From Escherichia coli (GTDB lineage: Bacteria > Pseudomonadota > Gammaproteobacteria > Enterobacterales > Enterobacteriaceae), in the NCBI RefSeq assembly GCF_041886205.1, contig NZ_CP169029.1: a stretch of DNA of 64,000 nucleotides. One strand, written 5' to 3'. The translations under genes were made by a program, and so were the position numbers. This document shows, piece after piece, positions 15,787 through 20,277 of this stretch. The notes under the pieces were generated by a model. That model was not told where the DNA came from and ran no database searches. It saw nothing but the letters and a program-made list of their open reading frames with translations. The stretch's first letter is position 1. The number at the start of each line of letters is the position of its first letter.

Positions 15787-18201
15787 TCACCCCGCAAACT
15801 GCCTGAACAGCGCCTTACCCTTAACCAGTCTCGCGCCCAGCCAGCCGCCGAAAAGCGACAGCAGCAGCGCACCGCTGCACGGCAGAACAATCCACAATCG
15901 CCAGTCTGGCTCCCACGGGAAATCAAACACTTTCGCCTGCAACACTGCCAGTGCCGTTTCCGCACCAATTGCGGCCACCAGGCCGGAAACAAACCCAAGC
16001 ATGGCGAACTCACACCACAATGTCGTGCGCAGCAGTTTTTTCCCCGCACCGAGTGTGCGCCATACCACCAGCTCCTGATGACGCTGGCGCATTCCCACCT
16101 GCACCTGTGCCAGCAACAGCAACATACCGCAGGCGGTGACCAGCACCACCATCACCTCCAGCGCCCGACTTACCTGCTCCAGCACCTGACCGACCTGTTT
16201 TAAAATCGCGCCAATATCTAACAGGCTAATGGTCGGGAACTGGCGGTTGAGTTGCGTCAACATGCCGTTGCCATTCTCCCAGCGGAAACTGGTAAGCCAG
16301 CTCTGCGGTTGCCCGTCTAATGCCCCTTCCGGGAAAATAAAATAGAAATTAGGCCGCAGACTTTCCCAGTCCACTTTGCGCAGGCTGGTCACTTTAGCGC
16401 GGAACTCCTGGGTATCGCCCATAAAAGTCACGGTATCACCGAGGGCAACGTTTAAGCGTTTCGCCAGCCCCTCTTCCATCGACACTTCATCGGCTTTTGG
16501 CGGCCAGTTACCGGCGACAATCGGATTATGATCGGGCCGCGTATTTTGCCAGGTAAGATTGAGTTCGCGATTAAGCGCCTCATCTTCATTACCTTCTGTC
16601 GGCTTATCGTTAATCGCCGTCAGCCGCGCCCGCACTACCGGATAAAATGATTCCGGGACTATATGATGTTCCGCGAGGAACGCTTTTAGCGGTGCTACCT
16701 GTTCTGTGGCGATGTTAATTAAAAAGTAGTTCGGGCTTTCTGGCGGTAGCTGCTGCTGCCAGCGGTCGAGCAGATCGCCACGCAATACCAGCAACAGCGC
16801 CAGCAGCATAAAGGAGAGCGAAAATGCCGAAAGCTGACTTAACGTTGACCACGGCTGACGTAACAGGCGGCTAACCGCCAGGCGCAGAGGCAGCGATTTC
16901 AGCGTCATGCGGCGAAGTACATTCAGCAGCATCCAGCCCAGCACACCGCACAGCAAAGCCAGTACTACCGCGCCAGCCAGCACCGCCCAAAGCAGCATGC
17001 TGCCACCCATTAATCCGGCGAGCAGCAGCACAACCACCACACTGACAATCGGCAGATAAAACTTCAGCGGCCAGACGTTCGCTACCACATCATTACGTAA
17101 TACGCGTAAAGGCTGCGTTGCCAGCAACAAGCGATATGGTCGTAGCCCCACCAGCAGCGAGATGACCGTCATGGTGCCCAGCGCCCACAACCACGGCCAG
17201 AGGCTGGCTGGCGGTAGTGCAGCAGGCAGAACGGGCTTGAGCAGCACCATCAACACGTTTTCGAACAACAGGCCTATGGCCCCACCGGTAACGGCTGAAA
17301 GCGCCAGCACCATCAACCACTGACCGACGATTAGCTTACGCAGTTGCGCTCGCCCTGCCCCCAGCGTTTTGAGGATCGCCACCAGATCGTAGCGACTGCG
17401 ACAGTAATGATTCATCGCCACCGCCACCGCTGCCACTGCCAGCAGCAAGGTCAGAAGCGCCGAAAGCAGCAGGAACTGCTGCGAGCGTTCCATCGATCGC
17501 CCCAGCGCGCCTTCGTCCTGTTCCAGACCGTACCAGCGTTGTTCGGGTTTAAGCTGGGGTAACAACCATTTCTCATAGCCGTCGAGCTGGTTCTCGTTGC
17601 CGCCGAATTTATAACGCCAGGTGACCCGACTCCCCGGCTGCACGGCTCCGGTTTTATCGACATCCGCCAGATTCATCATCAGACGCGGAGCCATCTGGAA
17701 GGGGTTAAAACCAGAATCCGGTTCCTGAATCACTTCTCCGGCAATCCGCAAGGTGGCATCGCCCACGTCGATGGTGTCGCCTGTTTTCAGGTTAAGCAGC
17801 GCCATCAGGCGTGGGGCCAGCAATACGCTGCCCGCCTGCGGTTTCAGGCCAGGGGGATTAGTTTGCAGATCGCCATACATCGGGTAGATATCATCCACCG
17901 CTTTGACGTTCGCCAGCTGCGGTGTGTCGCCTGCAAATGTCATGGTGGCGAAAGTCAGCTGCTTGCCGACTTTCAGGCCGCGCTTTTGCGCTTCCTCCAG
18001 CCACGCTTGCGGCACTTCGCGCGAACTGCGCAACGCCCGATCGCCCGCCATAAACTCACGGCTTTGCTGGCTTAAGCCCTTCTCCATGCGATCGCTGATA
18101 TTGCCCAGCGCCAGCACGCAGGCCACCGCCAGGCTTAGCGCCAGCCAGACAATTAATAGCGACGGCGAACGCCATTCGCGCCAGAACCAACGTGCAATCA
18201 T
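15787..18201 (-). CDS. ybbP: ABC transporter permease (FtsX-like)
   Basis: 804-aa ORF with two FtsX-type membrane domains, overlaps ybbA by 4 bp. Confidence 0.88.
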   Translation of the reverse strand: MIARWFWREWRSPSLLIVWLALSLAVACVLALGNISDRMEKGLSQQSREFMAGDRALRSSREVPQAWLEEAQKRGLKVGKQLTFATMTFAGDTPQLANVKAVDDIYPMYGDLQTNPPGLKPQAGSVLLAPRLMALLNLKTGDTIDVGDATLRIAGEVIQEPDSGFNPFQMAPRLMMNLADVDKTGAVQPGSRVTWRYKFGGNENQLDGYEKWLLPQLKPEQRWYGLEQDEGALGRSMERSQQFLLLSALLTLLLAVAAVAVAMNHYCRSRYDLVAILKTLGAGRAQLRKLIVGQWLMVLALSAVTGGAIGLLFENVLMVLLKPVLPAALPPASLWPWLWALGTMTVISLLVGLRPYRLLLATQPLRVLRNDVVANVWPLKFYLPIVSVVVVLLLAGLMGGSMLLWAVLAGAVVLALLCGVLGWMLLNVLRRMTLKSLPLRLAVSRLLRQPWSTLSQLSAFSLSFMLLALLLVLRGDLLDRWQQQLPPESPNYFLINIATEQVAPLKAFLAEHHIVPESFYPVVRARLTAINDKPTEGNEDEALNRELNLTWQNTRPDHNPIVAGNWPPKADEVSMEEGLAKRLNVALGDTVTFMGDTQEFRAKVTSLRKVDWESLRPNFYFIFPEGALDGQPQSWLTSFRWENGNGMLTQLNRQFPTISLLDIGAILKQVGQVLEQVSRALEVMVVLVTACGMLLLLAQVQVGMRQRHQELVVWRTLGAGKKLLRTTLWCEFAMLGFVSGLVAAIGAETALAVLQAKVFDFPWEPDWRLWIVLPCSGALLLSLFGGWLGARLVKGKALFRQFAG

Positions 18202-18884
18202 GCTTCCTCCTGCAACTGCCCGTTCACCAGCCGTAAGCAGCGGTCGCAGCGTGCCGCCAGTTGCAGGTCGTGGGTCACCATAATCAACGTGGTGCCATGT
18301 TCACGGTTGAGGGAAAACAGCAGGTCGGCAATTTTATCGCCCGTCTGGCGGTCAAGGTTGCCGGTGGGTTCGTCGGCAAACAGCACATCAGGTCGACCAT
18401 TAAAGGCTCGTGCCAGCGCCACTCGTTGCTGTTCACCGCCGGAAAGCTGTGCCGGAAGATGATCCAGACGTTTACCCAGCCCTAACTGTTCGAGCAACGC
18501 TTTCGCCCCGTTACGACTTTCCGCGCTACTCTCACCGCGCAGCAGAGCCGGAAGCTCGACGTTTTCCAGCGCGTTAAGGGTAGGAATTAACATAAATGAC
18601 TGAAAAACAAAGCCGACGTGCTTCGCGCGCAACTTTGCCCGCGCTTCTTCGTCCATATTATGTAGCGGTTGTCCCACCAGACTCACTTCGCCACTGCTGC
18701 CGTCATCAAGCCCGGCGAGGATCGCCAGCAAGGTTGACTTACCCGATCCCGACTCGCCCACCAGTGCGATGGTCTCGCCACGTTTGACAACCAGCTCAAC
18801 TCCGGTGAGGATGGAGAGTTCATGCTCCCCCTGACCGACGGACTTCTTAAGATGATGAACTTCAACAATGTTTTCCGCTGGCAT
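18198..18884 (-). CDS. ybbA: ABC transporter ATP-binding protein
   Basis: Walker A GESGSGKST, signature LSGGEQQRVALARA, 228 aa. Confidence 0.9.
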   Translation of the reverse strand: MPAENIVEVHHLKKSVGQGEHELSILTGVELVVKRGETIALVGESGSGKSTLLAILAGLDDGSSGEVSLVGQPLHNMDEEARAKLRAKHVGFVFQSFMLIPTLNALENVELPALLRGESSAESRNGAKALLEQLGLGKRLDHLPAQLSGGEQQRVALARAFNGRPDVLFADEPTGNLDRQTGDKIADLLFSLNREHGTTLIMVTHDLQLAARCDRCLRLVNGQLQEEA

Positions 18885-19478
18885 TTGCCCTTCCTGTTCC
18901 TGGTCCTGTTAACCTTCCGTGCCGCCGCAGCGGACACGTTATTGATTCTGGGTGATAGCCTGAGCGCCGGGTATCGAATGTCTGCCAGCGCGGCCTGGCC
19001 TGCCTTGTTGAATGATAAGTGGCAGAGTAAAACGTCGGTAGTTAATGCCAGCATCAGCGGCGACACCTCGCAACAAGGACTGGCGCGCCTTCCGGCTCTG
19101 CTGAAACAGCATCAGCCGCGTTGGGTGCTGGTTGAACTGGGCGGCAATGACGGTTTGCGTGGTTTTCAGCCACAGCAAACCGAGCAAACGCTGCGCCAGA
19201 TTTTGCAGGATGTCAAAGCCGCCAACGCTGAACCATTGTTAATGCAAATACGTCTGCCTGCAAACTATGGTCGCCGTTATAATGAAGCCTTTAGCGCCAT
19301 TTACCCCAAACTCGCCAAAGAGTTTGATGTTCCGCTGCTGCCCTTTTTTATGGAAGAGGTCTACCTCAAGCCACAATGGATGCAGGATGACGGTATTCAT
19401 CCCAACCGCGACGCCCAGCCGTTTATTGCCGACTGGATGGCGAAGCAGTTGCAGCCTTTAGTAAATCATGACTCATAA
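18852..19478 (+). CDS. tesA: acyl-CoA thioesterase I / lysophospholipase L1 (SGNH hydrolase)
   Basis: MMNFNNVFRW... signal peptide then GDSLSAG motif; 208 aa from internal Met. Confidence 0.9.
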   Translation: MMNFNNVFRWHLPFLFLVLLTFRAAAADTLLILGDSLSAGYRMSASAAWPALLNDKWQSKTSVVNASISGDTSQQGLARLPALLKQHQPRWVLVELGGNDGLRGFQPQQTEQTLRQILQDVKAANAEPLLMQIRLPANYGRRYNEAFSAIYPKLAKEFDVPLLPFFMEEVYLKPQWMQDDGIHPNRDAQPFIADWMAKQLQPLVNHDS

Positions 19479-20277
19479 AGCAACGGAGATCCTGACAGGT
19501 AAAGTTATGCAAAAATCGGTCTTAATTACCGGATGTTCCAGTGGAATTGGCCTGGAAAGCGCGCTCGAATTAAAACGCCAGGGTTTTCATGTGCTGGCAG
19601 GTTGCCGAAAACCGGATGATGTTGAGCGTATGAACAACATGGGATTTACCGGCGTGTTGATCGATCTGGATTCACCAGAAAGTGTTGATCGCGCAGCAGA
19701 CGAGGTGATCGCCCTGACCGATAATTGTCTGTATGGGATCTTTAACAATGCCGGATTCGGCATGTATGGCCCCCTTTCCACCATCAGCCGTGCGCAGATG
19801 GAACAGCAGTTTTCCGCCAACTTTTTCGGCGCACACCAGCTCACCATGCGCCTGTTACCCGCGATGTTACCGCACGGTGAAGGGCGTATTGTGATGACAT
19901 CATCGGTGATGGGATTAATCTCCACGCCGGGTCGTGGCGCTTACGCGGCCAGTAAATATGCGCTGGAGGCGTGGTCAGACGCGCTGCGCATGGAGCTACG
20001 CCACAGCGGAATTAAAGTCAGCCTGATCGAACCCGGTCCCATTCGTACTCGCTTCACCGACAACGTCAACCAGACGCAAAGTGATAAACCAGTCGAAAAT
20101 CCCGGCATCGCCGCCCGCTTTACGTTGGGACCGGAAGCGGTGGTGGACAAAGTACGCCATGCTTTTATTAGCGAGAAGCCGAAGATGCGCTATCCGGTAA
20201 CGCTGGTGACCTGGGCAGTAATGGTGCTTAAGCGCCTGCTGCCGGGGCGCGCGATGGACAAAATATTGCAGGGGTGA
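19468..20277 (+). CDS. ybbO: short-chain dehydrogenase/reductase
   Basis: TGCSSGIG NAD(P)-binding motif, YxxxK, 269 aa. Confidence 0.88.
   Translation: MTHKATEILTGKVMQKSVLITGCSSGIGLESALELKRQGFHVLAGCRKPDDVERMNNMGFTGVLIDLDSPESVDRAADEVIALTDNCLYGIFNNAGFGMYGPLSTISRAQMEQQFSANFFGAHQLTMRLLPAMLPHGEGRIVMTSSVMGLISTPGRGAYAASKYALEAWSDALRMELRHSGIKVSLIEPGPIRTRFTDNVNQTQSDKPVENPGIAARFTLGPEAVVDKVRHAFISEKPKMRYPVTLVTWAVMVLKRLLPGRAMDKILQG

Follow-up and report, generated by a model that had tools for sequence, protein, structure and literature searches.

The tesA–ybbA locus

In the 64-kb window (the whole stretch of Escherichia coli DNA that was analyzed), tesA and ybbA, which are b0494 and b0495 in NC_000913.3, lie head to head, and their 5' ends share nucleotides on opposite strands. 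Direct reading of positions 18600–19140 and the list of open reading frames agree that 33 bp are held in common, such that the first 11 codons of each gene are encoded by the same DNA, with codon position 1 of tesA opposite position 3 of ybbA. An earlier note on this DNA had claimed an overlap of this extent and had given the same arrangement for K-12. Both statements are borne out by the K-12 reference NC_000913.3, in which tesA is annotated at 519139..519765 (−) and ybbA at 519733..520419 (+), an overlap of exactly 33 bp. Over a 1.5-kb query, the sequence matches E. coli K-12 with 100% identity, and, of 5426 complete E. coli genomes, 5418 contain the locus. RefSeq/PGAP records begin tesA one codon later, at window position 18855, giving a protein of 207 amino acids and, counted from this ATG, an overlap of 30 bp (18855–18884). 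Conservation was assessed across 80 loci, each from a different Enterobacteriaceae species, with TesA identities of 86–100%, which together with the window gave 81 aligned sequences. The features of the locus are collected in Table 1.

Table 1. Features of the tesA–ybbA locus, in window coordinates
Feature	Position	Strand	Basis or remark
Head-to-head CDS overlap	18852..18884	both	33 bp in K-12 annotation; 18855–18884 (30 bp) conserved
ybbP, permease partner	15787..18201	−	4-nt ATGA overlap with ybbA, translationally coupled
ybbA CDS, 228 aa, ATPase subunit of the YbbAP type VII ABC transporter	18198..18884	−	ORF list, annotation, PDB identity
ybbA Shine-Dalgarno (SD) AGGAAGG	18889..18895	−	Within tesA signal-peptide codons 12–14; 3–7 nt upstream of ATG
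Candidate ybbA TSS	19039	−	2 reads; 155 nt upstream of ATG, inside tesA; low confidence
Second candidate ybbA TSS	19271	−	2 reads; 387 nt upstream of ATG, inside tesA; low confidence
tesA promoter −35, TTGACA	18784..18789	+	Inside ybbA codons 32–34; PWM scan, invariant in 81/81
tesA promoter −10, GAGGAT	18807..18812	+	17-nt spacer; inside ybbA codons 25–26
tesA TSS	18820	+	NC_000913.2 519021 (−), 45 reads; 5' UTR of 32 nt to the 18852 ATG
tesA 5' UTR	18820..18854	+	Antisense to ybbA codons 11–22; weak SD-like GGA at 18840–18842; unstructured
tesA CDS from universal ATG, 207 aa	18855..19478	+	K-12 annotation begins at 18852, 208 aa
ybbO, same direction, downstream of tesA	19468..20277	+	Likely true start 19507

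The components of the YbbAP-TesA system are all present. The ATPase is 100% identical over residues 1–228 to the YbbA chains of PDB entries 9ge6, 9ge7, and 9ge8, it is encoded next to an FtsX-type permease, and its partner is an SGNH/GDSL hydrolase, with precomputed Pfam GDSL/SGNH matches on tesA homologs and Pfam ABC_tran, FtsX, and Lipase_GDSL on the neighboring genes of related loci. YbbAP and TesA have been reported to form a physical complex, in a paper that describes the operons as partially overlapping and uses the co-location of tesA and ybbAP as support for the physical interaction (PLoS Biol 2025, PMC12646458). The locus considered there and in NC_000913.3 is the one described here, without any difference in DNA, although that paper does not go into the mapping of starts and promoters or into conservation. 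The arrangement of tesA and ybbA is thus already annotated and published, and its biological novelty is low.

Two of the flanking junctions also drew our attention. At 18198–18201, the stop of ybbA and the start of ybbP share the four minus-strand nucleotides ATGA, a classic translational-coupling junction of which the ATG is present in 80 of the 81 species. At the far end of tesA, the ATG from which ybbO is annotated in K-12 (19468) makes the two genes share 11 nt; this codon is ATG in only 45 of 81 species and ACG in 34. The internal ATG at 19507 (MQKSVLITG...) is ATG in 79 of 81, with a conserved GGAGATCCTGACAGGTAAAGTT before it, and ybbO calls in Salmonella and Winslowiella are 256–257 amino acids long compared with 269 in K-12. 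From this comparison of sequences, the annotated ybbO start, and with it the tesA–ybbO overlap, is probably an annotation artifact.

Where the two coding sequences begin

Comparative evidence places the start of ybbA at the ATG at 18884, with its SD sequence inside the tesA signal-peptide codons. The CAT at 18882–18884 is a minus-strand ATG, reading MPAENIVEVHHL... and opening the protein MPAENIVEVHHLKKSVGQGEHELS...GESGSGKS, the N terminus of which is expected to be PAENIVEVHHLK after removal of the Met. No start farther upstream is possible, because an in-frame TAA lies 27 nt before the ATG. The codon is ATG in 81 of 81 Enterobacteriaceae sequences, and positions 18871–18884 are invariant in their alignment. 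The earlier note had named a downstream Met as the alternative to this start and had seen no obvious one before the Walker A region, an observation that holds for other start codons too, as no in-frame ATG, GTG, or TTG occurs before the GTG of codon 42, right beside Walker A. Furthermore, the structures of LolD, MacB, and other relatives align with YbbA from residue 5–9 onward, so that a downstream start would lose the first strand of the ATPase domain. The predicted anti-SD duplex of the ybbA SD has an energy of −7.0 kcal/mol (the 5th percentile of random 20-mers from the window being −6.4), and the core (C)AGGAA is retained in 79 of the 81 species, with AAGGAA in 2.

The start of tesA is less readily read from annotation. 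Gene callers disagree on the length of TesA, giving 194–197, 204–208, 218, or even 347 amino acids and, in Klebsiella pneumoniae, a call that is 33 nt shorter, which shows the ambiguity to be one of annotation and not of biology. From 18852/18855, the frame reads MMNFNNVF... (MMNFNNVFRWHLPFLFLVLLTFRAAAADTLLILGDSLSAG...). The ATG at 18855 is ATG in 81 of 81 sequences and that at 18852 in 65 (ACG in 16), each with an anti-SD duplex of −3.2 kcal/mol; the upstream codon at 18822 is ATG in 42, GTG in 28, CTG in 9, and TTG in 2 (−8.4 kcal/mol), and the non-overlapping codon at 18885 is TTG in 67, GTG in 4, TGG in 6, and CTG in 4 (−1.5 kcal/mol). On this comparison and the TSS evidence discussed below, tesA starts at the ATG at 18855, and E. 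coli may also use 18852. Because only the 18855 ATG is universal, the conserved overlap is the 30 bp counted from the second Met of tesA, the 33 bp being the K-12 annotation. The invariance of the 18855 ATG is confounded by His10 of ybbA on the opposite strand.

Were tesA truly to start at the TTG at 18885 (codon 12), right after the start of ybbA, the two coding sequences would merely abut, and the overlap would be an artifact of annotation. In support of such a start, tesA of K. pneumoniae MGH78578 (KPN_00472) is annotated at 594 nt compared with 627 nt in E. coli, and many gene-caller products of 194–197 amino acids begin MPFLFL or MAFLFL. Divergent coding overlaps are also very rare in E. 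coli annotation: in a census of 663 overlapping pairs, given without names, 586 were co-oriented and 75 convergent, and the divergent ones numbered only 2. However, the codon is a non-start TGG or CTG in 10 of the 81 species and is essentially without an SD, and the signal peptide that would result has no positively charged n-region, since the only charge, the R of MNFNNVFRWH, lies upstream of it; every distant homolog examined has K or R before the hydrophobic core. The ATG at 18855, by contrast, extends beyond the aligned set to Salmonella and Winslowiella, and we regard a start at 18885 as very unlikely.

A start upstream at the 18822 ATG (MLPLTDGLLKMMNFNN..., 218 amino acids), which would lengthen the overlap to 63 bp, is more improbable still: the frame is open from this point (MLPLTDGLLK), several gene callers return the 218-residue product, and the SD match is the best available, with GGAG 5–6 nt upstream, but the codon is not conserved as ATG, positions 18822, 18825, and 18828 are as variable as unconstrained wobble sites of ybbA in spite of being first codon positions in this frame, and a transcript begun at the mapped TSS (18820) would have a leader of only 2 nt, so that the SD-like GAGGATGGAGAG falls outside the transcript and is promoter DNA of the −10 region. 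The reading frame of tesA runs on without a stop far beyond its 5' end, on the strand opposite ybbA, which gives rise to automated TesA calls of 218, 347, and 402 amino acids. Such over-extended calls (18822–18851; proteins P0024, P0042, and P0121) run through the opposite strand of ybbA and pollute protein databases.

With the 18885 and 18822 candidates both failing, tesA starts at 18855 (in E. coli perhaps also at 18852), and its overlap with ybbA is unavoidable. Comparative and TSS evidence thus support both starts, and neither gene has a viable alternative that would avoid the other. The divergent class, to which tesA/ybbA belongs, is the rarest orientation of overlap (Huvet & Stumpf 2014, PMC4161906). 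Whereas many divergent overlaps in databases are suspected start-site errors, tesA/ybbA survives the tests of conservation and TSS mapping.

Transcription and the synonymous-codon footprint

tesA is transcribed from a sigma-70-type promoter, all of whose elements, together with the TSS, are embedded in ybbA codons 22–34. That the tesA promoter must lie within the coding sequence of ybbA had been argued in the earlier note, which looked to TSS mapping as a check, and the published data uphold the argument. Kim et al. 2012 (PMC3415461), the sole source of TSS rows for tesA and ybbA, gives in its Table S1 a TSS for E. coli tesA (Table 1), with the upstream sequence TGGTCTCGCCACGTTTGACAACCAGCTCAACTCCGGTGAGGATGGAGAGTT. 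Coordinates were converted by way of the reported 51-nt sequence (−50..+1), which ends at window position 18820, 64 nt inside ybbA.

A strict consensus scan of 18400–19300 found no promoter, that of tesA included, and was replaced by a position weight matrix (PWM) scan. In the latter, the tesA promoter is the one strong plus-strand candidate and scores 10.5, a value reached by only 14 sites on the two strands of the 64-kb window, and the TSS that it predicts, at ~18819, matches the published one, of which it is independent. The two hexamers stand upstream of the mapped TSS at a spacing within the 16–18 nt of sigma-70 promoters. The −35 hexamer also falls within the stretch from −50 to +1 that Kim et al. 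list for this TSS, and its invariance extends to three ybbA wobble sites. The −10 hexamer is a poor match (3/6), reads AAGGAT in 55 of the 81 species, and ends 8 nt before the mapped TSS. As the base at the mapped TSS is T, which is unusual, its position could be off by 1–2 nt.

The tesA leader, with an anti-SD duplex of −3.2 kcal/mol, is if anything unstructured: folding of the tesA 5' region showed no excess of structure over shuffled controls (z-score +0.96), as would suit initiation at a weak SD. The 5' region of ybbA likewise folded no better than its shuffled controls, and a conserved regulatory RNA structure at either 5' region was rejected on these grounds. A separate observation concerns the 5' UTR at 18829–18851, where CCCTGACCGACGGA(C/T)TTCTTAAG is almost invariant in the 81 species, ybbA wobble sites included, and the SD-like GGA is minimal. 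Candidates for the origin of this constraint include a non-SD ribosome-binding determinant and a regulator binding site.

The extent to which each gene is constrained by its partner was followed through synonymous-codon entropy over the 81 species, counting codons only where the amino acid is retained and degenerate and comparing each segment with the rest of the gene by the Mann-Whitney test. In ybbA, entropy is 0.14 bits in codons 1–10, opposite the tesA CDS (p = 2e-6), 0.44 bits in codons 11–22, opposite the tesA 5' UTR (p = 4.5e-5), and 0.42 bits in codons 23–34, opposite the tesA promoter (p = 2e-4). In codons 35–46, which face nothing identified, it is 1.11 bits (p = 0.57), the reference being 1.14 bits in codons 47–228, also opposite nothing identified. 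Synonymous suppression in ybbA therefore covers codons 1–34, and the return to background coincides exactly with the upstream border of the −35 hexamer. In tesA, the corresponding values are 0.02 bits in codons 1–10, opposite the ybbA CDS (p = 2.6e-6), 0.61 bits in codons 11–16, opposite the ybbA SD (p = 0.052), 1.11 bits in codons 17–62, up to the 19039 TSS (p = 0.79), and 0.94 bits in codons 63–75, the site of a weak ybbA promoter candidate (p = 0.29), with 1.02 bits in the remaining codons 76–205, opposite nothing identified, as reference. The footprint is thus asymmetric, with a conserved tesA promoter inside ybbA and no conserved ybbA promoter inside tesA, and this asymmetry fits the 45 reads at the tesA TSS as against 2 at those of ybbA, all counted under one set of conditions. 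In essence, codons 1–34 of ybbA carry a second layer of information, comprising the coding sequence, 5' UTR, and promoter of tesA, and their synonymous sites are frozen as a consequence.

The only ybbA TSSs given by Kim et al. 2012 are 518802 and 518570, which correspond to window positions 19039 and 19271. Upstream of 19039 is a weak TTGCGA-17-TGGCAT. A search for the ybbA promoter by way of synonymous-site conservation in tesA gave no significant signal beyond codon 16, the 19039 site included. Because the TSSs are of 2 reads each and tesA shows no synonymous constraint beyond that codon, the ybbA promoter was not located with any confidence, and none is named here. The companion claim of the earlier note, that the promoter of ybbA lies within the tesA coding sequence, holds as well, on weak evidence: both starts recorded for ybbA are inside tesA, but the promoter itself could not be placed confidently. 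In the constitutive-promoter list of Shimada 2014, ybbA/ybbP appear only in connection with the downstream rhsD promoter, which is irrelevant here.

Two further observations belong to this region. Synonymous dips occur in tesA within 18933–18965, at codons 27–28 (D, T) and 35–37 (S, L, S of the GDSLS catalytic motif), where no convincing minus-strand promoter hexamers were found. Antisense ORFs of 50–127 amino acids also run opposite tesA and ybbA, an example being a 127-residue ORF at 18683..19066 (−), as is expected by chance in GC-rich coding DNA.

Phylogenetic depth and possible consequences of the overlap

The overlap is present in all 81 Enterobacteriaceae sequences and in orthologs beyond them. 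Start-to-start distances, as called, are −30 nt in Salmonella (TesA identity ~88%), −30 nt in Winslowiella of the Erwiniaceae (78%), and −33 nt in a metagenomic relative (70%), each with a divergent ABC ATPase and FtsX-type permease. At TesA identities of 41–53%, the overlap of 30–33 nt is not conserved, six representatives with divergent ABC and FtsX genes having distances, again as called, of −8, −2, 0, +21, +25, and +52 nt. One short contig (44%) is without the divergent ABC and FtsX neighbor. Even +52 nt is too short for two promoters and two leaders. We infer that the tight head-to-head packing of tesA and ybbAP is old and ancestral to the pair, and that the 30-nt coding overlap is an Enterobacterales feature, which would have arisen there by N-terminal extension of both proteins; the N termini of TesA and YbbA are slightly longer in Enterobacterales than in distant relatives.

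In the distant tesA loci (L086–L091), the divergent ABC and FtsX neighbor is constant and the genes downstream of tesA vary by lineage, being a ybbO-like SDR and cnoX in Enterobacterales and a fabV-like enoyl reductase, ETF-QO, HPPK, or OmpW elsewhere. The conserved unit would thus be tesA<>ybbAP and not tesA-ybbO.

It is, in our judgment, highly probable that the head-to-head overlap of tesA and ybbA is genuine and conserved and that it joins two transcription units with linked functions, tesA(-ybbO) and ybbA-ybbP. What follows from this geometry is a matter of graver doubt. ybbA would be transcribed at a low level from weak starts 155–387 nt inside tesA. Initiation of ybbA inside tesA would leave the two promoters firing toward each other and the mRNAs complementary in their 5' regions, over at least about 80 nt, or about 220 nt were the 19039 TSS used. 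Facing promoters of this kind would make room for transcriptional interference and for antisense pairing of the mRNAs, an arrangement called a "divergent excludon."

The excludon concept was first described in Listeria, and the outcome by which excludons are defined is mutually exclusive expression with RNase III processing. ExcludonFinder (NAR 2025, PMC12288877) places tesA–ybbA among 16 divergent excludons of MG1655, on the strength of overlapping RNA-seq coverage seen in 50% or more of 58 samples, an assignment that for this pair means transcript overlap alone. The position of the tesA TSS within ybbA confirms this overlap of 5' ends. Unlike excludons in general, tesA and ybbA overlap in their coding sequences themselves and not in UTRs alone. 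A second parallel is with pR/pL of coliphage 186, a convergent ("face-to-face") promoter pair that causes transcriptional interference. Polymerases leaving P(tesA) (18784–18812) rightward and the ybbA starts at or beyond 19039 leftward would similarly meet head-on, although interference at tesA/ybbA, unlike that at pR/pL, is putative, as is the ybbA promoter.

Alternatively, the overlap may be real but neutral, a product of start-codon drift in a packed divergent pair that has no regulatory consequence and in which antisense pairing and interference are negligible. Distances of −8 to +52 nt in distant relatives show that, outside Enterobacterales, the exact spacing is not kept. In addition, ybbA transcription is very low, with TSSs of 2 reads compared with 45 for tesA, folding of both 5' regions revealed no conserved RNA structure, and double coding together with the embedded tesA promoter and UTR fully explains the strong conservation. 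Against neutrality is the report of overlapping transcription in at least half of the 58 RNA-seq samples. Distant relatives also retain the divergent adjacency, and TesA and YbbAP assemble into one complex, which argues for a value in co-location, though not in overlap as such. Weighing these points, we would put neutrality at slightly short of an even chance, and tight packing without regulatory effect is about as likely as a regulatory reading.

A more ambitious form of the regulatory reading is that the head-on geometry constitutes a built-in dosage controller, setting or switching the TesA:YbbAP ratio without a transcription factor. A moderately strong P(tesA) in ybbA codons 25–34 would oppose the weak ybbA starts inside tesA, such that its firing would either occlude ybbAP transcription or lead to collisions with it, and the mRNAs would pair through their complementary 5' regions; the 30-nt CDS overlap specific to Enterobacterales would then be selected for locking this geometry in place. 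We consider such a controller unlikely. If it does exist, interference and antisense pairing would govern how much of the periplasmic hydrolase TesA there is relative to YbbAP, its membrane dock.

The genuineness of the tesA/ybbA overlap has practical consequences. It should not be "corrected" away, as is done by pipelines that produce TesA of 194–197 or 218 amino acids. The gene is also widely deleted or replaced in engineering for fatty-acid production, and edits in the first ~35 codons of ybbA or the first ~16 of tesA affect the coding sequence, ribosome-binding site, or promoter of the partner. The tesA/ybbA pair is one of very few true divergent overlaps of coding sequences in E. coli, and the products of the two units come together in the YbbAP-TesA complex.
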